Assembly (NCBI RefSeq): GCF_003018255.1
Contig: NZ_CP027440.1
DNA: 64,000 nucleotides
Source of the DNA: Escherichia coli
Lineage (GTDB): Bacteria; Pseudomonadota; Gammaproteobacteria; Enterobacterales; Enterobacteriaceae
Direction: 5' to 3' (one strand)
Position numbers and translations under genes: made by a program. Below the pieces are notes generated by a model. It worked only from the letters and a program-made list of their open reading frames with translations, was not told the origin of the DNA and did no database searches. Position 1 is the first letter of the stretch. Each line of letters begins with the position of its first letter. Below are positions 1 through 54,921 of the stretch, in pieces.

Positions 1-64
1 GCGTAAAACGCAGACTGCGTAGAAATCGTGGTGGCAGCCCCAATTTAACCAAATAAATGAGGAT

Positions 65-1114
65 GTGATGACACAACCAATGCCTGGGAAACCGGCCGAA
101 GACGCTGAAAATGAACTGGATATTCGTGGGTTGTTTCGTACCTTGTGGGCTGGGAAGCTGTGGATTATTGGCATGGGGCTGGCGTTTGCGTTAATCGCGC
201 TGGCGTATACTTTTTTTGCTCGCCAGGAGTGGAGCTCGACAGCGATTACCGATCGTCCAACGGTGAATATGCTGGGGGGATATTACTCACAGCAGCAATT
301 TTTGCGTAACCTGGATGTCCGTTCAAACATGGCTTCTGCCGACCAACCATCGGTCATGGACGAAGCTTATAAAGAGTTTGTTATGCAACTGGCCTCGTGG
401 GATACCCGCAGAGAGTTCTGGCTGCAAACCGACTATTACAAACAGCGGATGGTGGGCAACAGCAAAGCCGATGCGGCGTTGCTGGATGAAATGATCAACA
501 ACATCGTGTTTATTCCCGGTGACTTCACCCGCGCGGTCAATGACAGCGTGAAGCTGATTGCCGAAACTGCGCCTGACGCTAATAACCTGTTACGTCAGTA
601 TGTTGCTTTTGCCAGCCAGCGTGCAGCCAGCCATCTGAATGATGAGCTGAAAGGCGCATGGGCGGCACGCACCATCCAGATGAAAGCTCAGGTGAAGCGT
701 CAGGAAGAGGTGGCGAAAGCCATCTACGATCGCCGGATGAACAGTATTGAACAGGCGCTGAAAATTGCTGAGCAGCATAATATTTCGCGCAGTGCGACAG
801 ATGTGCCTGCCGAGGAATTACCTGATTCAGAAATGTTCCTGCTTGGGCGTCCAATGCTCCAGGCTCGACTGGAAAATTTACAGGCCGTCGGTCCGGCCTT
901 TGATCTCGACTATGATCAGAATCGGGCCATGTTAAACACCCTGAATGTTGGTCCAACCCTGGATCCGCGTTTTCAGACCTATCGCTATTTTCGTACGCCG
1001 GAAGAACCGGTAAAACGCGATAGCCCACGTCGTGCCTTCCTGATGATTATGTGGGGCATTGTCGGGGGACTGATCGGGGCTGGTGTCGCATTAACCCGCC
1101 GTTGCTCGAAATAG
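65..1114 (+). CDS. wzzE: ECA polysaccharide chain-length modulation protein
   Basis: 349 aa ORF; N-terminus [23 protein letters not shown] with TM segments at both ends typical of Wzz/PCP; first gene of the ECA cluster order. Confidence 0.9.
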
Positions 1115-1169
1115 CAACACTGCTGCGGTGAGCGCAAAGGCGCTCGCCGCTTATTCGAAGAGAATCGAT

Positions 1170-2300
1170 GTGAAAGTACTGACTGTATTTGGTACGCGCC
1201 CGGAAGCCATCAAGATGGCGCCGTTGGTGCATGCGTTGGCAAAAGATCCTTTTTTTGAGGCTAAAGTTTGCGTCACTGCGCAGCATCGGGAGATGCTCGA
1301 TCAGGTGCTGAAACTCTTTTCCATTGTACCTGACTACGATCTCAACATAATGCAGCCAGGACAGGGCCTTACAGAGATAACCTGTCGGATTCTGGAAGGG
1401 CTAAAACCTATTCTTGCCGAGTTCAAACCAGACGTCGTGCTGGTTCACGGCGATACTACGACGACGCTGGCAACCAGCCTGGCGGCGTTTTATCAGCGTA
1501 TTCCTGTTGGTCACGTTGAGGCTGGTCTGCGCACGGGCGATCTCTATTCGCCGTGGCCGGAAGAGGCTAACCGTACATTGACCGGGCATCTGGCGATGTA
1601 TCACTTCTCTCCAACCGAAACTTCCCGGCAAAACTTGCTGCGTGAAAACGTTGCGGATAGCCGAATCTTCATTACTGGTAATACAGTCATTGATGCACTG
1701 TTATGGGTGCGTGACCAGGTGATGAGCAGCGACACGCTGCGTTCAGAACTGGCGGCAAATTACCCGTTTATCGACCCCAATAAAAAAATGATTCTGGTGA
1801 CCGGTCACAGGCGTGAGAGCTTCGGTCGTGGCTTTGAAGAAATCTGCCATGCGCTGGCAGACATCGCCACCACGCACCAGGACATCCAGATTGTCTATCC
1901 GGTGCATCTCAACCCGAACGTCAGAGAGCCGGTCAATCGCATTCTGGGGCACGTGAAAAATGTCATTCTGATCGATCCCCAGGAGTATTTACCGTTTGTC
2001 TGGCTGATGAACCACGCCTGGCTGATTTTGACCGACTCAGGCGGCATTCAGGAAGAAGCGCCTTCGCTGGGGAAACCGGTGCTGGTAATGCGCGATACCA
2101 CTGAGCGTCCGGAAGCGGTGACGGCGGGTACGGTGCGTCTGGTAGGCACGGATAAGCAGCGAATTGTCGAGGAAGTGACGCGTCTTTTAAAAGACGAAAA
2201 CGAATATCAAGCTATGAGCCGCGCCCATAACCCGTATGGTGATGGTCAGGCATGCTCTCGCATTCTGGAAGCGTTAAAAAATAATCGGATATCACTATGA
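1170..2300 (+). CDS. wecB: UDP-N-acetylglucosamine 2-epimerase
   Basis: ORF track starts at 1128; in-frame GTG at 1170 ([18 protein letters not shown]) gives the expected 376 aa non-hydrolysing epimerase; stop overlaps next start (ATGA at 2297-2300). Confidence 0.9.
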
Positions 2301-3559
2301 GTTTTGCGACCATTTCTGTTATCGGACTGGGTTACATCGGGCTGCCTACAGCAGCTGCGTTTGCCTCTCGGCAAAAACAGGTGATTGGTGTCGATATCAA
2401 CCAACACGCAGTTGATACCATCAATCGTGGCGAAATCCATATCGTCGAACCTGATTTGGCGAGCGTAGTAAAAACTGCCGTAGAAGGCGGTTTTTTACGA
2501 GCGAGCACGACGCCAGTTGAAGCGGATGCCTGGCTGATTGCTGTACCCACGCCGTTTAAAGGCGATCATGAGCCAGATATGACCTACGTTGAATCGGCTG
2601 CTCGCTCCATTGCGCCAGTGCTGAAAAAAGGCGCGCTGGTGATCCTTGAATCCACCTCGCCGGTGGGGTCAACCGAGAAGATGGCAGAATGGTTAGCAGA
2701 GATGCGTCCAGATCTCACTTTCCCACAGCAGGTGGGTGAGTTGGCGGACGTCAACATTGCTTACTGCCCGGAACGCGTGTTACCGGGCCAGGTTATGGTC
2801 GAGCTGATTAAAAACGATCGCGTGATTGGTGGTATGACGCCGGTTTGTTCGGCCCGCGCCAGCGAACTGTACAAAATTTTCCTCGAAGGTGAGTGTGTCG
2901 TCACTAACTCGCGGACGGCGGAAATGTGTAAGCTCACCGAAAACAGCTTCCGCGATGTGAATATCGCTTTTGCTAACGAACTGTCGCTGATTTGTGCCGA
3001 TCAGGGAATTAACGTCTGGGAACTGATTCGCCTGGCGAATCGTCACCCTCGCGTTAATATTCTTCAGCCTGGTCCTGGCGTGGGCGGTCACTGCATTGCT
3101 GTTGATCCGTGGTTTATCGTGGCACAGAACCCGCAGCAGGCGCGGCTTATCCGTACCGCGCGCGAAGTGAACGATCACAAACCGTTCTGGGTTATCGATC
3201 AGGTGAAAGCGGCGGTTGCCGACTGCCTTGCTGCTACCGATAAACGCGCCAGTGAACTGAAAATCGCCTGCTTTGGTCTGGCGTTTAAACCGAATATTGA
3301 TGACCTGCGCGAAAGCCCGGCGATGGAAATCGCTGAACTGATCGCCCAGTGGCATAGCGGCGAAACTCTGGTTGTTGAGCCTAACATCCACCAGTTGCCG
3401 AAAAAACTGACCGGGCTTTGTACTCTGGCGCAGCTTGACGAGGCGCTGGCAACGGCAGACGTGCTGGTGATGCTGGTCGATCATAGTCAGTTCAAAGTTA
3501 TCAATGGCGACAATGTCCATCAGCAGTATGTCGTCGATGCCAAAGGAGTCTGGCGCTGA
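2297..3559 (+). CDS. wecC: UDP-N-acetyl-D-mannosamine dehydrogenase
   Basis: 420 aa; N-terminal Rossmann motif [15 protein letters not shown]; UDP-sugar dehydrogenase family; position in ECA cluster. Confidence 0.9.
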
Positions 3560-4626
3560 TGAGAAAAATTCTGATAACAGGTGGTGCCGGGTTTATTGGC
3601 TCGGCGCTGGTGCGTTATATCATCAACGAAACGAGCGACGCGGTGGTAGTGGTCGATAAGCTGACCTACGCCGGAAATCTGATGTCGCTGGCACCGGTCG
3701 CGCAAAGCGAGCGCTTTGCCTTTGAGAAAGTTGATATCTGCGATCGGGCAGAACTGGCGCGCGTATTCACTGAGCATCAGCCAGACTGTGTCATGCATCT
3801 GGCAGCCGAAAGCCATGTTGACCGTTCTATTGACGGCCCGGCAGCGTTTGTTGAAACCAACATTGTCGGGACTTATACATTGCTTGAAGCGGCGCGGGCT
3901 TACTGGAATGCGCTGACGGAAGATAAAAAATCAGCGTTCCGTTTTCATCATATCTCTACCGACGAAGTATATGGTGACCTGCACTCGACGGATGATTTCT
4001 TCACCGAAACCACGCCGTATGCGCCGAGCAGCCCTTATTCCGCGTCAAAAGCCAGCAGCGACCATCTGGTGCGCGCCTGGCTGCGGACCTATGGTCTGCC
4101 GACGCTTATCACCAACTGCTCGAATAACTACGGCCCTTACCACTTTCCGGAAAAACTGATCCCGCTGATGATCCTCAACGCGCTGGCGGGTAAACCGCTG
4201 CCGGTATATGGCAACGGGCAGCAAATCCGTGACTGGCTGTATGTTGATGATCACGCCCGCGCGCTGTATTGCGTGGCGACCACAGGGAAAGTCGGTGAAA
4301 CCTATAATATTGGTGGTCACAACGAGCGTAAGAATCTCGATGTTGTGGAAACCATTTGCGAGCTGCTGGAAGAACTGGCTCCGAATAAGCCGCACGGCGT
4401 GGCGCACTATCGTGACCTGATCACCTTTGTCGCTGACCGTCCGGGGCATGATCTGCGTTATGCCATTGATGCTTCGAAAATTGCCCGTGAACTTGGCTGG
4501 CTGCCGCAGGAAACCTTTGAAAGTGGAATGCGTAAAACGGTGCAGTGGTATCTGGCTAATGAAAGCTGGTGTAAGCAGGTGCAGGACGGCAGCTATCAGG
4601 GCGAGCGTTTAGGTCTGAAAGGCTAA
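3559..4626 (+). CDS. rffG: dTDP-glucose 4,6-dehydratase
   Basis: 355 aa; [12 protein letters not shown]-binding motif and YSASK catalytic motif of the SDR-type RmlB family. Confidence 0.9.
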
Positions 4627-4644
4627 TTTTCAGCGGAGGTAAAC

Positions 4645-5526
4645 ATGAAAGGTATTATCCTGGCGGGCGGTTCCGGCACCCGATTGCATCCGATTACGCG
4701 CGGCGTATCGAAGCAACTGTTGCCGATTTACGATAAGCCAATGATTTACTATCCGCTGTCGGTGCTGATGCTGGCCGGTATCCGCGAAATTCTCATCATC
4801 ACTACGCCGGAAGATAAAGGTTATTTCCAGCGCCTGCTGGGCGATGGTAGTGAGTTCGGTATCCAGCTGGAATATGCCGAGCAGCCCAGTCCGGACGGTC
4901 TGGCGCAGGCCTTTATCATCGGTGAAACCTTCCTCAACGGTGAACCTTCTTGTCTGGTGCTGGGCGATAACATCTTCTTCGGACAGGGCTTCAGTCCGAA
5001 GCTGCGTCATGTTGCGGCGCGCACGCAAGGCGCGACGGTATTTGGCTATCAGGTGATGGATCCGGAACGCTTTGGCGTCGTGGAGTTTGACGACAATTTC
5101 CGCGCTATCTCGCTGGAAGAAAAGCCAAAACAGCCGAAGTCAAACTGGGCGGTGACCGGGCTTTATTTCTACGACAGTAAAGTCGTGGAGTACGCAAAGC
5201 AGGTGAAGCCGTCGGAGCGTGGTGAACTGGAGATTACCTCCATCAACCAGATGTACCTCGAGGCGGGCAACCTGACCGTTGAACTGCTCGGGCGCGGATT
5301 TGCCTGGCTGGACACTGGCACTCACGACAGCCTGATTGAAGCCAGCACCTTTGTACAGACGGTGGAAAAACGCCAGGGCTTTAAGATTGCCTGCCTGGAA
5401 GAGATCGCCTGGCGTAACGGCTGGCTTGATGACGAAGGCGTGAAGCGCGCCGCCAGCTCGCTGGCGAAAACTGGCTACGGCCAATATCTGCTGGAGTTAC
5501 TTCGTGCCCGTCCGCGCCAGTATTGA
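4645..5526 (+). CDS. rffH: glucose-1-phosphate thymidylyltransferase
   Basis: 293 aa; [18 protein letters not shown] nucleotidyltransferase signature (RmlA family). Confidence 0.9.
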
Positions 5527-6178
5527 GCCACTAACCTGGGAAAACGCCTTCTTTGGTGTTAACAGCGCCATTGTGCGCATTAGTCCTGAAGCACCGCTCC
5601 TGACGCCAGACGCCTTAGCGCCGTGGTCACGGGTGCAGGCCAAAATTGCGGCATCAAATACGGATGAACTGGATGCCTTGCAACAGCTGGGATTCTCCCT
5701 GGTAGAAGGTGAAGTTGATTTGGCGCTACCCGTAAACAATGTCAGTGATAGTGGTGCTGTAGTGGCACAAGAGACCGATATTCCCGCATTACGTCAGTTA
5801 GCCAGCGCCGCATTTGCGCAAAGCCGTTTTCGTGCGCCGTGGTATGCGCCTGACGCCAGCGGTCGCTTTTATGCACAGTGGATTGAAAATGCCGTGCGCG
5901 GCACCTTTGATCATCAATGCCTCATTTTACGTTCGGCGTCCGGCGATATTCGTGGCTATGTCTCTTTACGGGAACTCAATGCGACAGATGCGCGAATTGG
6001 CCTGCTGGCTGGACGCGGTGCAGGTGCTGAGCTGATGCAAACAGCGCTAAACTGGGCGTATGCTCGCGGTAAAACAACTTTGCGGGTGGCGACCCAAATG
6101 GGCAACACCGCCGCGCTAAAACGATACATACAAAGTGGTGCGAATGTAGAAAGCACCGCGTACTGGTTATACAGGTGA
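5504..6178 (+). CDS. wecD: dTDP-fucosamine acetyltransferase
   Basis: 224 aa GTG-initiated ORF in the expected ECA position between rffH and wecE; GNAT-like C-terminal region. Confidence 0.8.
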
Positions 6179-6182
6179 TCAC

Positions 6183-7313
6183 ATGATTCCATTTAACGCA
6201 CCGCCGGTGGTGGGAACCGAACTCGACTATATGCAGTCGGCAATGGGTAGTGGCAAACTGTGTGGCGATGGCGGTTTTACCCGTCGCTGCCAGCAGTGGC
6301 TGGAGCAACGTTTTGGCAGCGCCAAAGTGTTACTGACGCCATCCTGCACCGCTTCGCTGGAGATGGCGGCGCTGCTGCTCGATATCCAGCCTGGCGATGA
6401 AGTGATCATGCCGAGCTACACCTTTGTCTCCACCGCCAATGCCTTTGTGCTGCGTGGCGCAAAAATCGTTTTTGTGGATGTTCGCCCGGACACCATGAAC
6501 ATCGACGAAACGCTGATTGAAGCGGCGATCACCGACAAAACGCGCGTTATCGTGCCGGTCCATTACGCGGGTGTGGCCTGCGAAATGGACACCATTATGG
6601 CGTTGGCGAAAAAGCATAATCTGTTTGTGGTGGAAGATGCTGCTCAGGGCGTGATGTCCACTTACAAAGGGCGTGCACTGGGAACCATTGGTCATATTGG
6701 CTGCTTTAGCTTCCATGAAACCAAAAACTACACGGCGGGCGGTGAAGGCGGCGCGACGCTGATTAACGATAAAGCGTTGATCGAACGAGCCGAGATCATC
6801 CGTGAAAAAGGCACAAACCGCAGCCAGTTCTTCCGTGGTCAGGTCGATAAATATACCTGGCGCGATATTGGCTCCAGCTATTTGATGTCCGATCTGCAAG
6901 CTGCGTACCTGTGGGCGCAACTGGAAGCAGCGGATCGTATCAATCAGCAACGTCTGGCGCTGTGGCAAAACTACTACGATGCGTTAGCACCTCTGGCGAA
7001 AGCCGGGCGTATCGAGCTGCCGTCGATTCCCGATGGCTGCGTGCAGAACGCGCATATGTTCTACATTAAACTGCGGGATATTGATGACCGGAGCGCGTTG
7101 ATTAACTTTCTGAAAGAAGCGGAAATCATGGCGGTGTTCCATTACATTCCGCTGCACGGTTGCCCTGCGGGGGAACGCTTTGGTGAGTTCCACGGTGAAG
7201 ATCGCTACACCACCAAAGAGAGCGAGCGCCTGCTGCGCCTGCCGCTGTTCTACAACCTGTCGCCCGTCAATCAGCGTACGGTAATTGCGACTTTGTTGAA
7301 CTACTTCTCCTGA
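6183..7313 (+). CDS. wecE: dTDP-4-amino-4,6-dideoxygalactose transaminase
   Basis: 376 aa; DegT/DnrJ/EryC1 PLP-dependent aminotransferase features (FSFHETKNYT lysine region). Confidence 0.9.
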   Translation: MIPFNAPPVVGTELDYMQSAMGSGKLCGDGGFTRRCQQWLEQRFGSAKVLLTPSCTASLEMAALLLDIQPGDEVIMPSYTFVSTANAFVLRGAKIVFVDVRPDTMNIDETLIEAAITDKTRVIVPVHYAGVACEMDTIMALAKKHNLFVVEDAAQGVMSTYKGRALGTIGHIGCFSFHETKNYTAGGEGGATLINDKALIERAEIIREKGTNRSQFFRGQVDKYTWRDIGSSYLMSDLQAAYLWAQLEAADRINQQRLALWQNYYDALAPLAKAGRIELPSIPDGCVQNAHMFYIKLRDIDDRSALINFLKEAEIMAVFHYIPLHGCPAGERFGEFHGEDRYTTKESERLLRLPLFYNLSPVNQRTVIATLLNYFS

Positions 7314-7314
7314 T

Positions 7315-8565
7315 ATGTCGTTGGCAAAAGCGTCCTTGTGGACGGCGGCCAGTACACTGGTCAAGATTGGTGCCGGGTTACTGGTCGGTAAGTTGCTGGC
7401 GGTGTCATTTGGTCCGGCGGGGCTTGGGCTGGCGGCAAATTTCCGCCAGTTGATTACCGTGCTCGGCGTGCTTGCCGGGGCGGGCATCTTTAATGGCGTA
7501 ACCAAATACGTTGCTCAGTACCATGATAATCCGCAGCAGCTGCGCCGCGTGGTCGGCACTTCATCAGCGATGGTACTTGGTTTCTCTACGCTGATGGCGC
7601 TGGTTTTTGTGCTGGCAGCTGCGCCAATCAGCCAGGGATTGTTTGGTAATACCGACTATCAGGGGCTGGTGCGTTTAGTGGCGCTGGTGCAAATGGGGAT
7701 CGCCTGGGGCAACCTGTTACTGGCGCTGATGAAAGGCTTTCGCGATGCCGCAGGTAATGCGTTATCCCTGATTGTCGGCAGCTTGATTGGCGTTCTCGCG
7801 TACTACGTCAGTTACCGTTTGGGCGGTTATGAAGGGGCGTTGCTGGGGCTGGCGTTGATTCCCGCGCTGGTGGTGATTCCTGCCGTCATCATGCTAATTA
7901 AGCGTGGTGCAATCCCGTTAAGCTATCTGAAACCCAGCTGGGATAACGGCCTGGCAGGGCAGTTGAGCAAATTTACGCTCATGGCGTTGATTACGTCGGT
8001 GACCTTGCCTGTTGCTTACATCATGATGCGTAAACTGCTGGCGGCGCAGTATAGCTGGGATGAGGTGGGGATCTGGCAAGGGGTGAGCAGTATTTCCGAT
8101 GCCTACCTGCAATTTATTACGGCATCGTTCAGCGTATATTTGCTGCCCACGTTGTCGCGGCTAACGGAAAAGCGCGATATCACCCGGGAAGTGGTTAAAT
8201 CGCTGAAATTCGTCTTACCGGCAGTGGCGGCGGCGAGTTTTACCGTCTGGTTGCTGCGTGATTTTGCTATCTGGCTGCTGTTGTCGAATAAATTTACCGC
8301 TATGCGCGATCTCTTTGCCTGGCAGTTAGTGGGTGATGTGTTAAAAGTGGGCGCTTATGTCTTTGGTTATCTGGTGATCGCCAAAGCGTCACTGCGGTTT
8401 TATATTCTGGCGGAAGTCAGCCAGTTCACTTTATTGATGGTATTTGCCCACTGGCTAATCCCTGCGCATGGTGCACTGGGCGCGGCGCAGGCCTATATGG
8501 CAACCTATATCGTCTATTTTTCTCTTTGTTGTGGCGTGTTTTTACTCTGGCGTAGGCGGGCATGA
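7315..8565 (+). CDS. wzxE: ECA lipid III flippase
   Basis: 416 aa polytopic membrane protein of the Wzx/MOP family, in ECA cluster order. Confidence 0.85.
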
Positions 8566-9641
8566 CTGTACTGATTCACGTACTGGGATCGGATATCCCT
8601 CACCATAACCGAACCGTTTTGCGGTTTTTCAATGACGCGCTGGCCGCGACGAGCGAGCACGCGCGCGAGTTTATGGTTGTTGGCAAGGACGACGGCTTAA
8701 GTGATAGCTGTCTGGCGCTTTCTGTGCAATTTTTCCCTGGGAAAAAATCGCTGGCGGAAGCGGTCATCGCGAAAGCAAAAGCTAACCGTCAGCAGCGTTT
8801 TTTCTTCCACGGTCAGTTCAATCCCACACTGTGGCTGGCTCTGCTGAGTGGTGGCATTAAGCCCAGCCAGTTTTACTGGCATATCTGGGGGGCAGACCTG
8901 TACGAACTTTCCAGTGGCTTGAGATATAAGCTTTTTTACCCACTACGTCGCCTGGCGCAAAAGCGAGTCGGCTGTGTATTTGCCACCCGCGGTGATTTGA
9001 GCTTTTTTGCCAAAACGCACCCAAAGGTGCGGGGCGAACTGCTGTACTTCCCGACGCGGATGGACTCTTCTCTTAATACGATGGTGAACGATCGGCAACG
9101 TGAAGTAAAAATGACCATTCTGGTGGGGAACTCCGGTGACCGCAGCAATGAGCATATTGCTGCCTTGCGCGCCGTTCATCAGCAATTTGGCGATACGGTA
9201 AAAGTGGTGGTGCCGATGGGATATCCGCCTAATAACGAAGCGTACATCGAGGAAGTTCGTCAGGCGGGACTGGAGTTATTCAGCGAAGAAAATCTGCAAG
9301 TTCTGAGCGAAAAACTGGAATTTGACGCCTATCTGACGCTACTTCGTCAGTGCGATCTCGGTTACTTTATTTTTGCCCGCCAGCAGGGCATTGGTACGCT
9401 TTGCTTACTGATTCAGGCGGGCATTCCTTGTGTGCTTAACCGGGAAAATCCGTTCTGGCAGGATATGACGGAACAGCATTTGCCAGTACTGTTTACTACC
9501 GATGATCTCAACGAGGATATTGTGCGTGAAGCGCAGCGCCAGTTGGCGTCGGTGGATAAAAACACCATTGCCTTCTTTAGCCCTAACTATCTACAAGGCT
9601 GGCAGCGGGCGTTGGCGATTGCCGCCGGGGAGGTCGCATGA
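8562..9641 (+). CDS. wecF: TDP-Fuc4NAc:lipid II Fuc4NAc transferase
   Basis: 359 aa; start overlaps wzxE stop (ATGA); synteny with ECA cluster. Confidence 0.85.
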
Positions 9642-10990
9642 GTCTGCTGCAATTCAGTGGCCTGTTTGTTGTCTGGCTGCTCTGCACGTTGTTTATTGCC
9701 ACGCTGACCTGGTTTGAGTTTCGCCGTGTGCGCTTTAACTTCAATGTCTTCTTTTCATTGCTGTTTTTGCTCACCTTTTTCTTCGGCTTTCCGCTGACCA
9801 GCGTGCTGGTATTTCGCTTTGATGTTGGTGTCGCGCCGCCAGAAATCTTGTTGCAGGCGTTGCTTTCTGCAGGCTGCTTCTACGCGGTTTACTATGTCAC
9901 CTACAAAACCCGTCTACGCAAACGCGTTGCTGATGCACCGCGCCGTCCGCTGTTTACCATGAACCGCGTGGAGACCAATCTCACGTGGGTGATCCTGATG
10001 GGCATCGCTCTGGTGAGCGTCGGCATCTTCTTCATGCACAACGGCTTTTTGCTGTTCCGGCTTAATTCTTACAGTCAGATCTTTTCCAGCGAAGTCTCCG
10101 GCGTGGCATTAAAACGCTTCTTTTACTTTTTCATCCCGGCGATGCTGGTGGTTTATTTTCTGCGCCAGGATAGCAAAGCGTGGCTGTTTTTCCTCGTCAG
10201 CACGGTTGCCTTTGGCTTGTTGACTTACATGATTGTCGGCGGCACTCGCGCCAATATCATCATCGCATTCGCTATCTTCCTGTTTATTGGCATTATTCGC
10301 GGCTGGATTTCGTTGTGGATGCTGGCGGCGGCGGGCGTGCTGGGGATTGTGGGCATGTTCTGGCTGGCGCTAAAACGTTATGGAATGAATGTGAGCGGCG
10401 ATGAAGCGTTCTATACGTTTCTCTATCTCACCCGCGATACCTTTTCGCCGTGGGAGAATCTGGCGTTGCTGTTGCAGAACTACGACAACATCGACTTCCA
10501 GGGCCTGGCTCCCATTGTCCGCGATTTCTATGTCTTTATCCCTTCCTGGCTGTGGCCGGGTCGCCCGAGTATGGTACTGAACTCCGCCAACTACTTTACC
10601 TGGGAAGTGCTGAATAACCACTCCGGGCTGGCGATCTCGCCTACGCTTATAGGCTCACTGGTGGTGATGGGCGGCGCGTTGTTCATCCCGCTCGGGGCGA
10701 TTGTGGTTGGTCTGATCATCAAATGGTTCGACTGGCTGTATGAGCTGGGCAACCGCGAGACTAATCGCTATAAGGCTGCGATATTGCACAGTTTCTGCTT
10801 CGGGGCGATCTTCAATATGATCGTGCTGGCACGTGAAGGGCTGGATTCGTTTGTCTCACGCGTAGTCTTTTTTATCGTGGTCTTCGGCGCATGTCTGATG
10901 ATCGCAAAACTGTTGTACTGGCTTTTTGAAAGCGCCGGACTCATTCATAAACGTACAAAATCATCGCTCCGGACGCAGGTTGAAGGATAA
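9638..10990 (+). CDS. wzyE: ECA polymerase
   Basis: 450 aa highly hydrophobic multi-TM protein; start overlaps wecF stop; ECA synteny. Confidence 0.85.
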
Positions 10991-10992
10991 CA

Positions 10993-11733
10993 ATGAATAA
11001 CAACACCACGGCACCGACCTATACGCTGCGTGGCTTACAGTTGATTGGTTGGCGTGATATGCAGCACGCCCTCGATTATCTGTTTGCTGACGGGCAGCTT
11101 AAGCAGGGAACGCTGGTTGCCATTAATGCCGAAAAAATGCTGACCATTGAAGATAATGCTGAGGTCAGGGAGCTAATTAACGCTGCCGAATTTAAATATG
11201 CGGATGGCATCAGCGTTGTACGTTCAGTACGTAAAAAGTACCCGCAGGCGCAGGTTTCCCGCGTTGCCGGTGCCGATCTCTGGGAAGAGCTGATGGCGCG
11301 CGCAGGCAAAGAAGGGACGCCGGTATTTCTTGTGGGCGGTAAACCTGAAGTGCTGGCGCAAACTGAAGCTAAACTGCGCAACCAGTGGAATGTGAATATC
11401 GTTGGCAGTCAGGATGGTTATTTTAAACCCGAGCAGCGTCAGGCGCTGTTTGAACGCATTCATGCCAGCGGAGCGCAAATCGTCACCGTTGCGATGGGAT
11501 CGCCAAAGCAGGAGATCTTCATGCGCGACTGCCGTCTGGTGCATCCGGATGCGCTGTATATGGGCGTTGGCGGGACTTACGATGTTTTCACCGGTCACGT
11601 AAAACGTGCACCGAAAATCTGGCAAACGCTGGGGCTGGAGTGGCTCTACCGCCTGCTTTCGCAGCCGAGCCGCATTAAGCGTCAGCTTCGTTTGCTGCGT
11701 TATTTACGCTGGCATTACACCGGCAACCTCTGA
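10993..11733 (+). CDS. wecG: UDP-N-acetyl-D-mannosaminuronic acid transferase
   Basis: 246 aa WecB/TagA/CpsF glycosyltransferase family; last gene of the ECA cluster. Confidence 0.85.
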
Positions 11734-11751
11734 TTTTCCTCTCTCTGTAAA

Positions 11752-11789
11752 GCGACGAAGTGGTCACTTCGTCGCCTTCCTGCTTTTTT
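11752..11789 (+). terminator. Rho-independent terminator after wecG
   Basis: GC-rich hairpin GCGACGAAGTG-GTC-ACTTCGTCGC followed by a T-run (CTGCTTTTTTATT) about 20 nt after the wecG stop. Confidence 0.7.
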
Positions 11790-11923
11790 ATTACACAAAG
11801 CATTCAAATTTTTAATGCTTTATTTGCCATTTCTCCTGAATTACGAAAACATTCGCAACACTCGATGTACCCATAACGATAACCGGTAACACCGGAAAGC
11901 ATGCAAACACAACACGAGGATTT

Positions 11924-13309
11924 ATGGCAGATAACAAACCAGAGCTACAGCGTGGGCTGGAAGCTCGACATATCGAACTCATCGCCCTGGGGGGCACCAT
12001 TGGCGTCGGCCTGTTTATGGGGGCCGCCAGTACCCTGAAATGGGCCGGGCCATCCGTATTGTTGGCCTATATCATCGCCGGGCTGTTCGTCTTTTTCATC
12101 ATGCGTTCAATGGGCGAAATGTTATTCCTCGAACCGGTTACCGGTTCGTTCGCCGTTTATGCGCATCGCTATATGAGCCCGTTCTTTGGCTATCTCACCG
12201 CCTGGTCTTACTGGTTTATGTGGATGGCGGTGGGGATCTCAGAAATCACCGCCATTGGCGTTTATGTCCAGTTCTGGTTCCCGGAGATGGCGCAGTGGAT
12301 ACCCGCATTGATCGCGGTGGCGCTGGTGGCGCTGGCGAATCTGGCGGCGGTGCGGTTGTACGGCGAAATCGAATTCTGGTTCGCGATGATCAAAGTCACT
12401 ACGATTATCGTGATGATTGTCATTGGCCTGGGCGTGATTTTCTTTGGTTTTGGCAATGGCGGGCAGTCGATTGGTTTTAGCAATCTCACAGAGCATGGCG
12501 GTTTCTTTGCGGGTGGCTGGAAAGGGTTCCTGACCGCATTGTGTATTGTGGTGGCGTCCTACCAGGGCGTGGAGCTGATTGGCATTACTGCCGGTGAAGC
12601 GAAGAATCCGCAGGTGACGCTGCGCAGTGCCGTAGGCAAAGTGTTGTGGCGTATCCTGATTTTCTACGTAGGCGCGATTTTCGTTATCGTCACCATCTTC
12701 CCGTGGAATGAAATAGGCAGTAACGGCAGCCCGTTCGTACTGACTTTCGCCAAAATCGGCATTACCGCAGCGGCGGGCATTATCAACTTTGTGGTGCTGA
12801 CGGCTGCGCTCTCTGGCTGTAACAGCGGCATGTACAGTTGCGGACGTATGCTCTACGCATTGGCGAAAAACCGTCAGTTACCGACGGCGATGGCGAAAGT
12901 TTCCCGTCACGGCGTACCGGTTGCGGGTGTGGCAGTATCTATTGCTATCCTGTTAATTGGCTCATGCCTGAACTACATCATTCCCAATCCGCAGCGTGTG
13001 TTTGTCTACGTCTACAGTGCCAGCGTGCTTCCGGGGATGGTGCCATGGTTTGTGATATTGATTAGCCAGCTGCGTTTTCGTCGTGCGCATAAAGCGGCAA
13101 TTGCCAGCCATCCGTTCCGCTCAATCCTGTTCCCGTGGGCCAACTACGTAACAATGGCATTCCTGATTTGCGTTTTGATCGGCATGTACTTTAATGAAGA
13201 TACGCGTATGTCGCTGTTTGTCGGCATCATCTTTATGCTGACGGTGACGGCGATTTATAAAGTTTTTGGGCTTAATCGCCACGGTAAAGCGCATAAACTG
13301 GAGAAATAA
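11924..13309 (+). CDS. yifK: APC-family amino acid permease (threonine/serine transporter)
   Basis: 461 aa with 12 predicted TM segments; amino acid permease N-terminus; K-12 synteny between ECA cluster and argX tRNA operon. Confidence 0.85.
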
Positions 13310-13390: not shown

Positions 13391-13411
13391 CCACCCCCGC
13401 AACGGCGCTAA

Positions 13412-13488
<77 letters not shown>

Positions 13489-13545
13489 TTTAGTCCCGGC
13501 GCTTGAGCTGCGGTGGTAGTAATACCGCGTAACAAGATTTGTAGT

Positions 13546-13622
13546 GGTGGCTATAGCTCAGTTGGTAGAGCCCTGGATTGTGATTCCAGTTGTCGTGGGT
13601 TCGAATCCCATTAGCCACCCCA
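13546..13622 (+). tRNA. hisR: tRNA-His (anticodon GUG)
   Basis: GGUGGCUAUAGCUCAGUUGGUAGAGC with the extra 5' G typical of tRNA-His; anticodon loop AUUGUGAUU; GGUUCGAAUCC T-arm; CCA end. Confidence 0.9.
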
Positions 13623-13642
13623 TTATTAGAAGTTGTGACAAT

Positions 13643-13729
13643 GCGAAGGTGGCGGAATTGGTAGACGCGCTAGCTTCAGGTGTTAGTGTCCTTACGGACG
13701 TGGGGGTTCAAGTCCCCCCCCTCGCACCA
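13643..13729 (+). tRNA. leuT: tRNA-Leu (anticodon CAG), long variable arm
   Basis: GCGAAGGUGGCGGAAUUGGUAGACGC D-arm; anticodon loop CUUCAGGUG; long variable arm; GGUUCAAGUCC T-arm; CCA end. Confidence 0.9.
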
Positions 13730-13771
13730 CGACTTTAAAGAATTGAACTAAAAATTCAAAAAGCAGTATTT

Positions 13772-13848
13772 CGGCGAGTAGCGCAGCTTGGTAGCGCAAC
13801 TGGTTTGGGACCAGTGGGTCGGAGGTTCGAATCCTCTCTCGCCGACCA
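13772..13848 (+). tRNA. proM: tRNA-Pro (anticodon UGG)
   Basis: CGGCGAGUAGCGCAGCUUGGUAGCGC; anticodon loop UUUGGGA; GGUUCGAAUCC T-arm; CCA end. Confidence 0.9.
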
Positions 13849-13854
13849 ATTTTG

Positions 13855-13880
13855 AACCCCGCTTCGGCGGGGTTTTTTGT
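13855..13880 (+). terminator. Rho-independent terminator of tRNA operon
   Basis: Hairpin CCCCGCTTCGGCGGGG immediately followed by TTTTTTGTTTTC. Confidence 0.8.
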
Positions 13881-13994
13881 TTTCTGTGCATTTCGTCACT
13901 TTCCCTTCGCAATAAACGCCCGTAATAACGCATTGCGCCACGGTATGATTTCGCCCTTAACTTATTGAAGGATGACTTCAGGCAAGGAGCGACC

Positions 13995-28689: not shown

Positions 28690-29514
28690 ATGCAGTTCTC
28701 GAAAATGCATGGCCTTGGCAACGATTTTATGGTCGTCGACGCGGTAACGCAGAATGTCTTTTTTTCACCGGAGCTGATTCGTCGCCTGGCGGATCGGCAC
28801 CTGGGGGTAGGGTTTGACCAGCTGCTGGTGGTTGAGCCGCCGTATGATCCTGAACTGGATTTTCACTATCGCATTTTCAATGCTGATGGCAGTGAAGTGG
28901 CGCAGTGCGGCAACGGTGCGCGCTGCTTTGCCCGTTTTGTGCGCCTGAAAGGGCTGACTAATAAGCGCGATATCCGCGTCAGCACCGCCAACGGGCGGAT
29001 GGTTCTGACCGTCACCGATGATGATCTGGTCCGCGTAAATATGGGCGAACCCAACTTCGAACCTTCCGCCGTGCCGTTTCGCGCTAACAAAGCGGAAAAG
29101 ACCTATATTATGCGCGCCGCCGAGCAGACAATCTTATGCGGCGTGGTGTCGATGGGAAATCCGCATTGCGTGATTCAGGTCGATGATGTCGATACCGCGG
29201 CGGTAGAAACGCTTGGTCCTGTTCTGGAAAGCCACGAACGTTTCCCGGAGCGCGCCAATATCGGTTTTATGCAAGTGGTTAAGCGCGAGCATATTCGTTT
29301 ACGCGTTTATGAGCGTGGGGCAGGAGAAACCCAGGCCTGCGGCAGCGGCGCGTGTGCGGCGGTTGCAGTAGGGATTCAGCAAGGTTTGCTGGCCGAAGAA
29401 GTACGCGTGGAACTCCCCGGCGGTCGTCTTGATATCGCCTGGAAAGGTCCGGGTCACCCGTTATATATGACTGGCCCGGCGGTACATGTCTACGACGGAT
29501 TTATTCATCTATGA
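28690..29514 (+). CDS. dapF: diaminopimelate epimerase
   Basis: 274 aa from ATG 28690 ([17 protein letters not shown]); catalytic Cys motifs (GNGARC, ACGSGA). Confidence 0.9.
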
Positions 29515-30218
29515 AGCAACCAGGGGAAGAACTGCAGGAAACACTCACGGAGCTTGATGACCGGGCGGTTGTCGATTATCTGATTAAAAATCCTGAGTTT
29601 TTTATCCGCAATGCGCGCGCAGTAGAAGCGATACGTGTGCCGCATCCGGTACGCGGCACCGTTTCGTTGGTCGAGTGGCACATGGCCCGCGCACGTAATC
29701 ACATTCATGTTCTGGAAGAGAACATGGCGTTGTTGATGGAGCAGGCTATCGCCAACGAAGGCCTGTTTTATCGCTTACTCTACTTGCAGCGTAGTCTCAC
29801 CGCCGCCAGCAGTCTCGACGATATGCTGATGCGCTTTCACCGCTGGGCGCGCGATCTCGGCCTGGCGGGTGCGAGCCTGCGCCTGTTCCCGGATTGCTGG
29901 CGTTTAGGTGCGCCGTCGAACCACACTCATCTGGCATTAAGCCGTCAGTCTTTCGAACCGCTGCGTATTCAGCGTTTGGGGCAGGAACAGCACTATCTTG
30001 GGCCGCTTAACGGACCGGAGCTGCTGGTGGTGCTACCGGAAGCGAAAGCGGTGGGATCGGTGGCGATGTCGATGCTGGGAAGCGATGCTGATTTGGGTGT
30101 CGTGCTGTTTACCAGTCGCGATGCCAGTCACTATCAACAAGGGCAGGGAACGCAGTTACTTCATGAAATTGCGCTGATGTTGCCGGAGCTTCTGGAGCGT
30201 TGGATTGAACGCGTATGA
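29511..30218 (+). CDS. yigA: DUF484 protein YigA
   Basis: 235 aa; start overlaps dapF stop; conserved dapF-yigA-xerC-yigB operon order. Confidence 0.8.
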
Positions 30219-48520: not shown

Positions 48521-50782
48521 ATGACAATTCTTAATCACACCCTCGGTTTCCCTCGCGTTGGCCTGCGTCGCGAGCTGAAAAAAGCGCAAGAGAGTTATTG
48601 GGCGGGGAACTCCACGCGTGAAGAACTGCTGGCTGTTGGGCGTGAATTACGTGCCCGTCACTGGGATCAACAAAAGCAGGCGGGTATCGACCTGCTGCCG
48701 GTGGGCGATTTTGCCTGGTACGATCATGTACTGACCACCAGTCTGCTGCTGGGTAACGTTCCGCCACGTCATCAGAACAAAGATGGTTCGGTAGATATCG
48801 ACACCCTGTTCCGTATTGGTCGTGGACGTGCACCGACTGGCGAACCTGCGGCGGCAGCGGAAATGACCAAATGGTTTAACACCAACTATCACTACATGGT
48901 GCCGGAGTTCGTTAAAGGCCAACAGTTCAAACTGACCTGGACGCAGCTGCTGGAGGAAGTGGACGAGGCGCTGGCGCTGGGCCACAAGGTCAAGCCCGTG
49001 CTGCTGGGGCCGGTTACCTACCTGTGGCTGGGTAAAGTGAAAGGTGAACAGTTTGATCGCCTGAGCCTGCTGAACGACATTCTGCCGGTTTATCAGCAAG
49101 TGTTGGCAGAACTGGCAAAACGCGGCATTGAGTGGGTACAGATCGACGAACCAGCGCTGGTACTGGAACTACCGCAGGCGTGGCTGGACGCATACAAACC
49201 CGCTTACGACGCGCTCCAGGGCCAGGTGAAACTGCTGCTGACTACCTATTTTGAAGGCGTAACGCCAAATCTCGACACGATTACTGCGCTGCCTGTTCAG
49301 GGGCTGCATGTGGACCTTGTACATGGTAAAGATGACGTTGCTGAACTGCACAAGCGTCTGCCTTCTGACTGGCTACTGTCTGCGGGTCTGATCAATGGTC
49401 GTAACGTCTGGCGCGCCGATCTTACCGAGAAATATGCGCAAATTAAGGACATTGTCGGCAAACGCGATTTGTGGGTGGCATCTTCCTGCTCGTTGCTGCA
49501 CAGCCCCATCGACCTGAGCGTGGAAACGCGTCTTGATGCAGAAGTGAAAAGCTGGTTTGCCTTCGCCCTACAAAAATGCCATGAACTGGCACTGCTGCGC
49601 GATGCGCTGAACAGTGGTGATACGGCGGCTCTGGCAGAATGGAGCGCTCCGATTCAGGCGCGTCGTCACTCTACCCGTGTCCATAATCCGGCGGTAGAAA
49701 AGCGTCTTGCAGCCATTACCGCCCAGGACAGTCAGCGTGCGAATGTCTATGAAGTGCGTGCTGAAGCCCAGCGTGCGCGTTTTAAACTGCCCGCGTGGCC
49801 GACTACCACGATTGGTTCCTTCCCGCAAACCACGGAAATTCGTACACTGCGTCTGGATTTCAAAAAGGGTAATCTCGACGCCAACAACTACCGCACGGGC
49901 ATTGCGGAACATATCAAGCAGGCCATTGTCGAGCAGGAACGTTTGGGACTGGATGTGCTGGTACATGGCGAGGCCGAGCGTAATGACATGGTGGAATACT
50001 TTGGCGAGCATCTGGATGGCTTTGTCTTTACGCAAAACGGTTGGGTACAGAGCTACGGTTCCCGCTGCGTGAAGCCACCGATTGTCATTGGTGACGTTAG
50101 CCGCCCGGCACCAATTACCGTGGAGTGGGCGAAATATGCACAATCGCTGACCGACAAACCGGTGAAAGGGATGCTGACGGGGCCGGTAACCATACTCTGC
50201 TGGTCATTCCCGCGTGAAGATGTCAGCCGTGAAACCATCGCCAAACAAATTGCGCTGGCGCTGCGTGATGAAGTGGCGGACCTGGAAGCCGCTGGAATTG
50301 GCATCATCCAGATTGATGAACCGGCACTGCGCGAAGGTTTACCGCTGCGTCGCAGCGACTGGGATGCCTATCTCCAGTGGGGCGTGGAGGCTTTCCGTAT
50401 CAACGCCGCCGTGGCGAAAGATGACACACAAATCCACACTCACATGTGTTACTGCGAGTTCAACGACATCATGGATTCGATTGCGGCGCTGGACGCAGAC
50501 GTCATCACCATCGAAACCTCGCGTTCCGACATGGAGTTGCTGGAGTCGTTTGAAGAGTTTGATTATCCAAATGAAATTGGTCCAGGCGTCTATGACATTC
50601 ACTCGCCAAACGTACCGAGCGTGGAATGGATTGAAGCCCTGCTGAAGAAAGCGGCAAAACGCATTCCGGCAGAGCGTCTGTGGGTAAACCCGGACTGTGG
50701 CCTGAAAACGCGCGGCTGGCCAGAAACCCGCGCGGCACTGGCGAACATGGTGCAGGCGGCGCAGAATTTGCGTCGGGGATGA
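48521..50782 (+). CDS. metE: cobalamin-independent methionine synthase
   Basis: 753 aa; [23 protein letters not shown]-terminus; C-terminal zinc-binding motifs ([16 protein letters not shown]). Confidence 0.95.
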
Positions 50783-50818
50783 TGAGTATTAACGAGTCAT
50801 TGTAAATTGCAGTACGAT

Positions 50819-50846
50819 AATGGCTTCCAGTACTGGAAGCCATTTT
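50819..50846 (+). terminator. Rho-independent terminator after metE
   Basis: Hairpin AATGGCTTCCAG-TACT-GGAAGCCATT followed by TTTG. Confidence 0.7.
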
Positions 50847-50950
50847 GCATGAGTGCCAGATTGAAGCAGATCTTCAGGAGTAGAAATAACCGAATCGTTT
50901 TTTTCGCAAAACACAGTTTTGAGTGATTCCGTTCAGTAATCAACGCTACG

Positions 50951-51211
50951 TTATTTATTCTCACGTTGCACGAGATTGTATCCCTTTTCACTAACGTGGT
51001 AGTGAGGCATAGACTTATGCCCGCTATCCTCAATAATAACCAAACCTTCGTTAGCTAATTTGTTAACAATATTAACAATATTACCGAATCCTGGTATTTG
51101 CCTTATGGATAGTGTGCGATCGAGATTCATCCAGTTCCAGTTTATATCTTTCTCAGTCATAACGTTCAGCACGTTAAGTTCATTTTTAGTGATCACGATA
51201 TTCTGTACCAA
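50951..51211 (-). CDS. second paralog of putative immunity protein (possible orphan immunity)
   Basis: 86 aa; clearly paralogous to the 51271-51528 product (shared IVxxNxLxVMxEKDIxWxWMxLDRTLxIRxIPGFGNxxNIVxKLxNxGLVxI pattern); AT-rich. Confidence 0.55.
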   Translation of the reverse strand: MVQNIVITKNELNVLNVMTEKDINWNWMNLDRTLSIRQIPGFGNIVNIVNKLANEGLVIIEDSGHKSMPHYHVSEKGYNLVQRENK

Positions 51212-51270
51212 AATTGATGAGTATCTTATTGAAAGATCACAATGTAAATCATGCTCCTGTAATGGCTGGA

Positions 51271-51528
51271 TCAGAAGAGGTTGTCTTGTTGTTCTTTGAT
51301 AAGATTCAATCCATATTGAGAAACTCTGTAGCGTGGTTTAGAGTTGCCCTCACCATTTACGATATCAACCAACCCATGATTAACCAGCTTTGTTACGATA
51401 TTCGCTACGTTGCCAAATCCTGGAATATTTCGTATAGCTAAAGTACGATCCAGCACCATCCAGCTCCAGTCAATATCTTTCTCAGCCATAACTTTCAGCA
51501 CGTTAAATTCAACTATCGTAATCGTCAT
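51271..51528 (-). CDS. putative cognate immunity protein of the Hcp-fusion effector
   Basis: 85 aa; start codon overlaps the stop of the upstream Hcp-fusion gene (ATGA at 51525-51528), the arrangement typical of effector-immunity pairs. Confidence 0.55.
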   Translation of the reverse strand: MTITIVEFNVLKVMAEKDIDWSWMVLDRTLAIRNIPGFGNVANIVTKLVNHGLVDIVNGEGNSKPRYRVSQYGLNLIKEQQDNLF

Positions 51529-52658: not shown

Positions 52659-53049
52659 CCTTGAAAAACCTTTTGTTAATTCTTTTGTGAAAGAAAAATA
52701 GTATTGTTATTTTTTACCTTTATTTACGCCCAAAAGGGATGAACTAAAATGTGAAAAACAAAATGTTTCACTTTAATATCTTTTTATCAGGAAGGTCTGA
52801 GATAATTTATAATTAATGTGAATGTGTTGATAATAATTAATGTTTGTTTGAGAATGGGAGTTGATGGTAAATCTCTAAGGTGTCTGCCAGTGAAGAGACT
52901 CATTTATGACTATGACTTGCCGACTTTCTTAAGGTCAAATAGCGGAGTCGTGCTCTCCAATCAATTCATACTGATTATTTTTTGGGGGACAGAGATGGCA
53001 GCAAAATGCACTCGTTCACTCACCATCTCAAATATAGACTAAGAGGAAA

Positions 53050-54913: not shown

Positions 54914-54921
54914 GATATCAG

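Follow-up and report, generated by a model that had tools for sequence, protein, structure and literature searches.

The window analysed here is a stretch of 64,000 nt of Escherichia coli DNA, and its positions 1-11733 hold the wec/rff operon for the enterobacterial common antigen (ECA), with the RefSeq and K-12 annotations mapping onto it one-to-one. Downstream of rho and wecA the order wzzE-wecB-wecC-rffG-rffH-wecD-wecE-wzxE-wecF-wzyE-wecG gives the gene content and order of the ECA operon, and the RefSeq product names are those of an epimerase, a dehydrogenase, a dehydratase, a thymidylyltransferase, an acyltransferase, a transaminase, a flippase, glycosyltransferases and a polymerase. The 11 genes of the preliminary description are those from wzzE to wecG; the operon itself has 12, since it includes wecA, which is clipped by the window edge and present only as its last 56 nt. 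Among 5,426 complete E. coli genomes, 5,424 match the query at 95-99.6% identity, and the RefSeq annotation was taken from a strain 99.6% identical to the window (the best database identity). With 250 substitutions over 13 kb, the window belongs to an E. coli lineage other than K-12. The K-12 operon (window coordinate = K-12 coordinate minus 3,968,963) has the same 11 genes, lengths and junction geometry at every position; three flanking SNPs near junctions (4640, 7307 and 9627) leave starts, stops and spacing unaltered, and the junctions are otherwise identical. Within the operon, sigma-70-like promoter sites are fewer than in shuffled sequence (4 vs 9.0 +/- 2.4). The junctions are as follows (negative spacing denotes overlap).

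54-70, + strand: wecA/wzzE, wecA TAA at 54-56, 11-nt spacer with GAGGA, wzzE ATG at 68-70
1115-1169, + strand: wzzE/wecB spacer (+55), the sole long spacer of the operon; wecB GTG start at 1170
2297-2300, + strand: wecB/wecC, ATGA, wecC start overlapping the wecB stop (-4); weak Shine-Dalgarno site, A-rich open initiation region
3543-3561, + strand: wecC/rffG, AAGGAG Shine-Dalgarno site at 3543-3548 in the wecC 3' end, TGATG at 3557-3561; rffG start and wecC stop have base 3559 in common (-1)
4624-4647, + strand: rffG/rffH, rffG stop, 18-nt spacer with GGAGG at 4635-4639, rffH ATG at 4645
5504-5526, + strand: rffH/wecD, 23-nt overlap, wecD GTG start (5504) within the rffH 3' end, rffH TGA at 5524-5526
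6173-6185, + strand: wecD/wecE, Shine-Dalgarno site AGGTGATC at 6173-6180 across the wecD TGA (6176-6178), 4-nt spacer, wecE ATG at 6183
7311-7317, + strand: wecE/wzxE, TGA-T-ATG with a 1-nt spacer (+1); TTCTCC upstream, without a Shine-Dalgarno site
8562-8565, + strand: wzxE/wecF, ATGA, wecF start overlapping the wzxE stop (-4), without a conserved Shine-Dalgarno site
9627-9641, + strand: wecF/wzyE, GGGGAGG Shine-Dalgarno site at 9627-9633 in the wecF 3' end, ATGA at 9638-9641 (-4)
10988-10995, + strand: wzyE/wecG, wzyE TAA, 2-nt spacer (+2), wecG ATG; AAGGA upstream

The five overlaps listed in the preliminary description are borne out by the open reading frame list, RefSeq, the K-12 annotation and direct reading of the junctions, but the near-abutting junctions wecD/wecE (+4), wecE/wzxE (+1) and wzyE/wecG (+2) were left out, and these matter equally for coupling. 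Seven of the 11 junctions lie between -4 and +4 (-4, -1, +4, +1, -4, -4 and +2), inside the range of about -8 to +10 taken here as compatible with coupling, and rffH/wecD (-23), wzzE/wecB (+55), rffG/rffH (+18) and wecA/wzzE (+11) fall outside it. Overlaps are not more frequent in the ECA operon than in operons nearby: they occur at five of ten junctions here, at 5/19 among the remaining co-directional pairs of the window (Fisher p=0.24) and at 5/15 when only pairs at most 100 nt apart are counted (p=0.44). Genome-wide, unidirectional E. coli gene pairs have comparably tight spacing in about one third of cases (820 at -8 to +10 vs 1,630 at >+20; PMC10666635).

Unlike overlap frequency, junction geometry goes beyond chance as a conserved trait and is strongly conserved. 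The -4 spacing is kept at wecB/wecC in 73/74 loci, at wzxE/wecF in 72/74 and at wecF/wzyE in 73/74, and the -23 overlap of rffH/wecD in 40/40. The +1 spacing of wecE/wzxE is kept in 73/74 loci with TGA, TAG or TAA as the stop, always at +1 or -1, and wecC/rffG always overlaps (-1 in 19 loci, -4 in 23) with ATG, GTG or TTG as the start. The geometry is thus conserved while the underlying sequence changes. True spacers vary between genera: wecA/wzzE from 11 to 30 nt depending on genus, rffG/rffH from 6 to 33 nt (153 nt once, in locus L026) and wzyE/wecG from -8 to +58. The wzzE-wecB spacer holds a conserved stem-loop (~1126-1152), followed by the invariant AAGAGAATCGAT and the wecB GTG; all eight pairs of the stem show compensatory changes, with a covariation score of 0.608 vs 0.282 in shuffles (0/500).

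The junctions differ in the means by which ribosomes could start. Median Shine-Dalgarno duplex energies over 41-77 loci are weak for wzxE (-1.6 kcal/mol), wecF (-2.5), wecB (-3.6) and wecC (-4.0), and stronger for wzyE (-7.4), rffG (-8.2), wecE (-8.2) and rffH (-10.0); against the extended 16S tail, the wecE site reaches -13.3 kcal/mol. In every genus examined (77 loci scored), wzxE and wecF were found to have no Shine-Dalgarno site, as would be expected of obligately coupled genes, the wecC site is weak, and rffG, wzyE and wecE have clear conserved ones, those of rffG and wzyE lying within the upstream coding sequence. Opening energies of the initiation regions are 6.4-10.7 except at wzyE (13.9) and wecD (14.2), which do not exceed ordinary coding sequence in openness (background 14.3); the local fold at wzyE is unexceptional (z=0).

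Published K-12 ribosome densities, compared here for the first eight genes, are 95.6 for wecA, 80.6 for wzzE, 138.3 for wecB, 166.9 for wecC, 110.8 for rffG, 62.8 for rffH, 24.5 for wecD and 130.0 for wecE (PMC5318159). The span is therefore 6.8-fold, from wecD to wecC, and translation efficiency in the same data runs from 0.21 to 1.10, with wecD the lowest of the eight measured genes (0.208; PMC5318159). If a gene were translated by re-initiation alone, its density should not exceed that of its upstream neighbour. The wecC/rffG pair conforms (167 to 111, 0.66-fold) and wecB/wecC is borderline (138 to 167, 1.2-fold), the excess at wecC being beyond pure re-initiation, whereas across the +4 junction density rises 5.3-fold from wecD to wecE, which re-initiation alone cannot give (PMC5318159). 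The A-rich open region of wecC could let ribosomes initiate de novo independently of a Shine-Dalgarno site. Resistance to kasugamycin (effect value >2), a property associated with coupling without defining it, was reported for 137 of 2,801 K-12 transcripts, including wecC and wzxE, and in that dataset wecE is sensitive (effect value 0.54; p=0.235, n=3) (PMC5230787). Two of 11-12 genes in a set comprising 4.9% of transcripts have a chance probability of ~0.10, so that these published values lend weak support.

Together, these observations are probably best explained if the overlaps are normal annotated junctions of a compact operon, of several kinds and not a single stoichiometry device, with expression co-regulated but unequal. 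On this explanation, wzxE (+1), wecF (-4) and probably wecC (-4) would be translated mostly through termination-reinitiation from the upstream gene, and their synthesis would thus be capped at or below the upstream rate. At rffG (-1) and wzyE (-4), re-initiation would probably be assisted by the intragenic site and by unfolding through the upstream ribosome. In contrast, wecE (+4), rffH (+18), wecB (+55) and wzzE (+11), each with a site of its own and an open initiation region, would be largely self-initiating, as the 5.3-fold rise in density shows for wecE; for rffH, independent Shine-Dalgarno-driven initiation is likely. The 23-nt rffH/wecD overlap, with a GTG and a weak site in structured sequence, would act as a weak start and not as a coupling device, in agreement with wecD having the lowest measured translation efficiency. 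Indeed, coupling in reporter studies is most efficient at -4 to +4 and is absent at -25 (PMC12548453), so the geometry of this overlap is not one competent for coupling.

The closest parallels are the E. coli -4 pairs hyfHI, astDB and ydbH/ynbE as well as menDH (Huber et al. 2019, PMC6728339), which have the same ATGA/TGATG geometry and in which, as in wec, some downstream genes have an intragenic Shine-Dalgarno site and some do not. Coupling of those pairs was shown by premature-stop reporters with mRNA controls; in the literature examined, we found no experimental coupling test (premature upstream stop at constant mRNA) at any wec junction. Coupling throughout the operon, as first proposed, has tight spacing and kasugamycin-resistant wecC and wzxE in its favour, but the published K-12 data fit partial coupling only. 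The "known feature" of the preliminary description holds for the annotation alone, no test of coupling in the ECA operon having been found in the literature examined.

A bolder reading, which we hold only tentatively, is that the mixed programme is itself conserved in the sampled Enterobacterales, with wzxE and wecF as obligate re-initiation clients of wecE, wecD throttled, and a ribosome relay under selection. Synthesis of the flippase and the transferase would then be held at or below the WecE rate, and wecD would be deliberately throttled through its 23-nt overlap. Of the 32 loci lacking rffG-rffH, 15 show a renewed overlap of wecD with the wecC stop (4 nt in ten loci, 1 nt in four, 17 nt in one), and seven other such loci carry an in-frame relic mini-ORF across the gap. 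If the relay is selected, the former lineages would have rebuilt a wecC/wecD GTGA or TTGA overlap under that selection, and the latter would have kept the fast-evolving, always open rffG'-'rffH relic of 19-36 codons as a bridge.

That the overlaps are instead neutral by-products of compaction, each gene initiating on its own without functional coupling, we consider unlikely. NTGA evolves easily, as the start codon already supplies three of its four bases, and a review explains by this ease why -4 spacing is so abundant (PMC12548453). Such neutrality would accord with the ordinary overlap frequency and with the openness of most wec initiation regions, and part of the conservation of -4 and -23 spacing is unavoidable, since the shared bases belong to two genes at once. 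In the same window, dapF-yigA-xerC-yigB has consecutive -4, -4 and -1 overlaps (29511, 30215 and 31111), like wec, between products annotated as an epimerase, a DUF484 protein, a recombinase and a phosphatase that look unrelated, which suggests that such overlaps alone do not imply stoichiometric need. However, no Shine-Dalgarno site precedes wzxE or wecF in any of the 77 loci scored, and yet both genes keep their +1 or -4 spacing despite a changing stop codon, tight junctions formed anew after loss of rffGH, and wecC and wzxE are among the published kasugamycin-resistant transcripts (PMC5230787). Among five tested E. coli -4 pairs, furthermore, bioBF is uncoupled but the other four are coupled (PMC6728339).

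Tight, roughly equimolar co-expression of all ECA proteins, which the preliminary description read from the overlaps, is highly improbable. Tight junctions are numerous in the operon, the -4 and -1 pairs with published densities differ only 1.2-fold and 0.66-fold (PMC5318159), and subunits of heteromeric complexes are enriched in short-distance E. coli pairs (30.4% vs 6.8%; PMC10666635). Against this, 69.6% of tight pairs do not encode complexes (PMC10666635), and the K-12 ribosome profiling proposed as a check contradicts near-equal synthesis from wecA to wecE, both in the overall span of densities and efficiencies and in the wecD/wecE jump. WzzE:WzyE, the single ECA complex that the literature examined defines, has a ratio of 8:1 and is encoded by genes nine apart (PMC12212991). 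The reported partners WzzE, WzxE and WzyE are encoded non-adjacently, and adjacent overlapping pairs are by RefSeq names enzymes, flippase and polymerase, not reported as partner subunits in the literature examined. Furthermore, the chain of coupling is broken by the +18 and +55 spacers and the -23 overlap. trpE-trpD and trpB-trpA are classical coupled pairs. rplK-rplA is also cited as one (PMC12548453). In the classical pairs, stop and start overlap or abut as in wec and translation of the second gene requires that of the first, but they encode subunits of a single enzyme or co-regulated ribosomal proteins, which adjacent wec pairs, by product names, do not.

That the overlaps are annotation artefacts, with real starts further downstream and no overlap of genes, is barely credible: wecD does start with GTG and its protein was re-versioned in K-12 (YP_026256.2), and some loci hold in-frame alternative starts downstream, but none of these is conserved among the loci compared (the best, wzyE codon 4, occurs in 49/75), and N-termini are conserved from residue 2. 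Across about 75 Enterobacterales loci, a start codon is present at the equivalent position in 74/75 for wecC, 43/43 for rffG, 41/41 for wecD, 74/75 for wecF and 75/75 for wzyE (at least 98% per overlapping start), and the starts are thus robust. The crystal construct of WecD covers residues 2-224 (PDB 2FS5/2FT0), its N-terminus is preserved even in loci without rffH, and Citrobacter sp. MGH106 (L012) offers no wecD start candidate besides the homologous GTG. In WecC and RffG, a glycine-rich stretch, read as a putative nucleotide-binding motif, begins within the first 10 residues.

The overlaps themselves are already known from annotation and of low novelty, and the analysis has little importance beyond practical points. 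It provides a worked example in which a stop/start overlap does not imply equimolar expression. Insertions in ECA genetics are known to be polar (PMC6083912), and translational polarity can confound such genetics. From the junction map, truncation or deletion of the upstream gene is likely to have translational polar effects on wzxE, wecF and probably wecC, while wecE, rffH and wecB should be insulated.

The window opens with the wec/rff operon of E. coli, for the enterobacterial common antigen (ECA), which fills its first 11.7 kb. A 14-kb query aligned over 80% or more of its length, at 95–99.6% identity, with 5,424 of the 5,426 complete E. coli genomes. Gene models agree between RefSeq, for a 99.6%-identical strain, and the K-12 MG1655 annotation. 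The window comes from a strain other than K-12, with 250 ungapped mismatches in 13 kb and 1.9% divergence over the operon; its junction sequences are the same as those of K-12 except for three nearby SNPs. The operon has 12 genes rather than the 11 of the preliminary description, because wecA also belongs to it, with only its final 56 nt in the window. Strain 20Ec-P-124 is collinear with the window only to metE (~50.8 kb); the content differs at 50778–64000, where 20Ec-P-124 carries an hxlB-ptsG-tkt island.

Genes and overlaps of the operon in the window
68–1114, wzzE
1170–2300, wecB, GTG start
2297–2300, wecB/wecC overlap, ATGA (−4)
2297–3559, wecC
3557–3561, TGATG at wecC/rffG, base 3559 common to both (−1)
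3559–4626, rffG
4645–5526, rffH
5504–5526, rffH/wecD overlap, 23 nt
5504–6178, wecD, GTG start
6183–7313, wecE
7315–8565, wzxE
8562–8565, wzxE/wecF overlap, ATGA (−4)
8562–9641, wecF
9638–9641, wecF/wzyE overlap, ATGA (−4)
9638–10990, wzyE
10993–11733, wecG

The ORF list, which also has candidate antisense ORFs, and direct reading of the junctions place the five overlaps exactly where the preliminary description had them. From wecA to wecG, the stop-to-start distances (negative for overlaps) are +11, +55, −4, −1, +18, −23, +4, +1, −4, −4 and +2, so the earlier junction list was right in its overlaps and incomplete in leaving out wecD/wecE (+4), wecE/wzxE (+1) and wzyE/wecG (+2). Reporter studies rank these three junctions as equal to overlaps, because coupling is most efficient at −4 to +3 (PMC12548453). 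The overlaps are already in public annotation and are an ordinary case of a very common arrangement. Genome-wide, 820 unidirectional E. coli pairs lie at −8 to +10 and 1,630 have spacings above +20 (PMC10666635), and −4 is the commonest spacing across prokaryotes, partly through ease of evolution (PMC12548453). Outside the operon, 5 of the 19 co-directional CDS pairs in the window overlap: hemD/hemC (20873), dapF/yigA (29511–29514), yigA/xerC (30215–30218) and DUF943/YPO3983 (37717) by −4, and xerC/yigB (31111) by −1. Enrichment in the ECA operon is not significant against these neighbours (5/10 versus 5/19, p = 0.24) or against the 15 neighbour pairs at most 100 nt apart (p = 0.44). The number of overlaps is thus no more than chance; it is the conserved geometry that goes beyond chance.

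We gathered 78 loci via WecF (95% down to 48% identity), with genes modelled by tblastn, from Escherichia, Citrobacter, Salmonella, Enterobacter, Raoultella/Klebsiella, Kluyvera, Buttiauxella, Atlantibacter, Morganella, Erwinia, Pantoea and Phaseolibacter. Several public assemblies (loci L051, L068 and L069) have aberrant distances at many wec genes, look frameshifted and were left out of the tallies; single junctions are aberrant in L064, L075, L050 and L070. Such distances most likely reflect frameshifts in the assemblies, or pseudogenes, and not biology. The −4 distance is kept at wecB/wecC in 73/74 loci, at wzxE/wecF in 72/74 and at wecF/wzyE in 73/74, the +1 at wecE/wzxE in 73/74, and the −23 at rffH/wecD in 40/40; wecC/rffG overlaps in every locus, by −1 in 19 and −4 in 23. 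The drifting junctions are wecA/wzzE (11–30), wzzE/wecB (23–115), rffG/rffH (6–33, once 153) and wzyE/wecG (−8 to +58). Bases shared by two genes force part of this conservation. In some cases geometry is held despite sequence change, the stop before wzxE being TGA, TAG or TAA and the rffG start ATG, GTG or TTG.

The preliminary description allowed that re-annotated starts might remove the overlaps, which is unlikely, since homologous start codons, N-termini and WecD structures all support the annotated starts. In Enterobacterales loci a start codon stands at the homologous position in 74/75 (wecC), 43/43 (rffG), 41/41 (wecD), 74/75 (wecF) and 75/75 (wzyE); the N-termini of all five products are conserved from residue 2, and none of these genes has a conserved downstream in-frame start among the loci compared. 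A glycine-rich motif begins inside the first ten residues in wecC and rffG, and reading it as a candidate nucleotide-binding motif would leave little room to shift either start. Crystal structures of WecD (2FS5, 2FT0) hold residues 2–224 of the GTG-start form. Furthermore, genomes without rffH still encode the WecD N-terminus V-x-x-R-A-S-I-E-P-L at the homologous start, which is therefore no accident of the rffH reading frame.

The rffG-rffH pair is missing from roughly 32 of the 78 ECA loci. Among these, 15 have wecD overlapping the wecC stop once more, by −4 in 10 (L012, L019, L032, L065, L023, L028, L035, L025, L027 and L080), −1 in 4 and −17 in 1, the 4-nt overlaps being GTGA or TTGA (wecD start GTG or TTG). 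Seven others (L031, L043, L033, L036, L076, L034 and L045) have an in-frame relic ORF reaching from the stop of wecC to the former rffH stop within wecD, in which the RffG N-terminus is fused to the RffH C-terminus (19–36 codons, depending on the start); it ends 23 nt inside wecD (17 nt in L045). The relic stays open at fixed length despite diverging faster than flanking wecC (57–73% versus 83–87% nucleotide identity). Together, the re-formed overlaps and the open relic fit selection for an unbroken ribosome relay, with weak statistics. In Buttiauxella, a short upstream ORF before wecD was ruled out by reading frame, and no bridging ORF turned up in a scan.

Duplex energies with the 16S 3′ tail reveal a conserved split of the wec starts across 41–77 loci. 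Little or no Shine-Dalgarno pairing (median, kcal/mol) is found at wzxE (−1.6), wecF (−2.5), wecB (−3.6) and wecC (−4.0), and clear sites at rffG (−8.2, AAGGAG), rffH (−10.0, GGAGG), wecE (−8.2; E. coli site AGGTGATC, −13.3) and wzyE (−7.4; GGGGAGG in E. coli). Indeed, no genus examined has a Shine-Dalgarno site before wzxE or wecF (window 7285–7317 and 8532–8565; 77 loci); TTCTCC ahead of wzxE resembles the anti-Shine-Dalgarno strand, not its complement. The wecB start (1170) is GTG in 12 of 13 representative genera shown, with a conserved purine tract, AAGAGA(A/G), ahead of it in place of a canonical site; Phaseolibacter wecB has an ATG start with a strong GGGAGG. The energy needed to open −18 to +12 around the start is 6.4–10.7 kcal/mol for most genes versus 14.3 for coding background, and equals background at wzyE (13.9) and wecD (14.2). 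The idea of a special hairpin that hides the wzyE start was rejected, the local fold being as stable as shuffles (z = 0); our claim is limited to the absence of structure depletion here, in contrast with other starts.

Published K-12 data (Burkhardt et al. 2017, supplementary file 1; PMC5318159) cover wecA to wecE after a coverage filter.

Translation efficiency, ribosome density and mRNA in K-12 (PMC5318159)
wecA: 0.387, 95.6, 247
wzzE: 0.307, 80.6, 263
wecB: 0.586, 138.3, 236
wecC: 0.769, 166.9, 217
rffG: 0.549, 110.8, 202
rffH: 0.349, 62.8, 180
wecD: 0.208, 24.5, 118
wecE: 1.101, 130.0, 118

Ribosome density changes 1.2-fold at the −4 pair wecB to wecC, 0.66-fold at the −1 pair wecC to rffG and 0.39-fold at the −23 pair rffH to wecD, and rises 5.3-fold at the +4 pair wecD to wecE (PMC5318159), a rise that requires wecE to initiate independently at its strong site. 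Independent transcription as the cause of these differences is without support, given few internal promoter matches (4 weak sigma-70-like consensus matches in the operon versus 9.0 ± 2.4 in shuffles) and an mRNA level that declines smoothly and two-fold 5′ to 3′ (263 to 118; PMC5318159); both fit transcription from promoters upstream of wecA. For kasugamycin, resistance to which Lange et al. (2017) associate with translational coupling, the resistant set (137 of 2,801 transcripts, translation at least two-fold above average resistance) includes wecC (rffD) and wzxE, and wecE is on the sensitive side (effect value 0.54, p = 0.235) (PMC5230787). These results match the Shine-Dalgarno classes and are weak evidence, given that p value and a two-match chance of ~0.10. 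The Mori 2021 supplements name none of wzxE, wecF, wzyE, wecG, wecD and wecE, and a literature search found no paper joining wzxE, wzyE and ribosome profiling.

Among the spacers only wzzE-wecB (1115–1169) is long, and it holds a conserved stem-loop at ~1126–1152, with an invariant AAGAGAATCGAT and then the GTG start of wecB downstream. Over an alignment of 25 loci its sequence differs between genera with compensatory changes in 8/8 pairs; 83% of cells are paired versus 66% in shuffles, and covariation scores 0.608 versus 0.282 in shuffles (0/500) and 0.08–0.36 in slid controls. Its possible roles include stabiliser, processing site and partial terminator; mRNA is only ~10% lower across it (PMC5318159). 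Buttiauxella adds a T6 tail, and in Morganella there are two or three hairpins. An Rfam search of window 1–12000 found no family (single match, E = 0.8). Downstream of wecG, ~11734–11923 contains a GC-rich hairpin (GCGACGAAGTGGTCACTTCGTCGC), then CTTCCTGC and a T6 run, probably the operon terminator; it escaped a simple terminator scan, as its T run begins more than 2 nt beyond the stem. A tRNA cluster (Arg-His-Leu-Pro) lies at ~13400–13900 between thrP and aslB in the annotation of a related strain.

The best reading of the wec junctions is a mixed architecture of several kinds. WzxE and WecF would likely be translated via re-initiation, as probably would WecC; rffG and wzyE likely use Shine-Dalgarno-assisted re-initiation, unfolding, or both; wecE, rffH, wecB and wzzE likely initiate independently; and wecD has a weak start within rffH, whether deliberate or incidental, coupling being absent at −25 in systematic constructs (PMC12548453). 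We infer these mechanisms, because our literature search found no test of coupling at any wec junction and, of five E. coli −4 pairs that have been tested, one is uncoupled (PMC6728339); the single paper matched on coupling for this operon applies the word to a cat-fusion method, and a 2025 ECA review leaves translation unmentioned (PMC12212991). Translational coupling, proposed earlier for the whole operon, is plausible only at some of its junctions. The "tight stoichiometric co-expression" with which the overlaps were said to be consistent is contradicted by ribosome densities spanning 6.8-fold from wecA to wecE (PMC5318159). Judged by RefSeq product names, adjacent overlapping wec genes do not encode partner subunits; the one defined ECA complex found in the literature, WzzE:WzyE at 8:1 (PMC12212991), is encoded by genes far apart, and 69.6% of tight E. 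coli pairs encode no complex (PMC10666635). In the same window, dapF-yigA-xerC-yigB overlaps at three successive junctions (−4, −4, −1), and the annotated products of these genes look unrelated; the cluster is a useful counter-example to the view that overlap implies stoichiometry.
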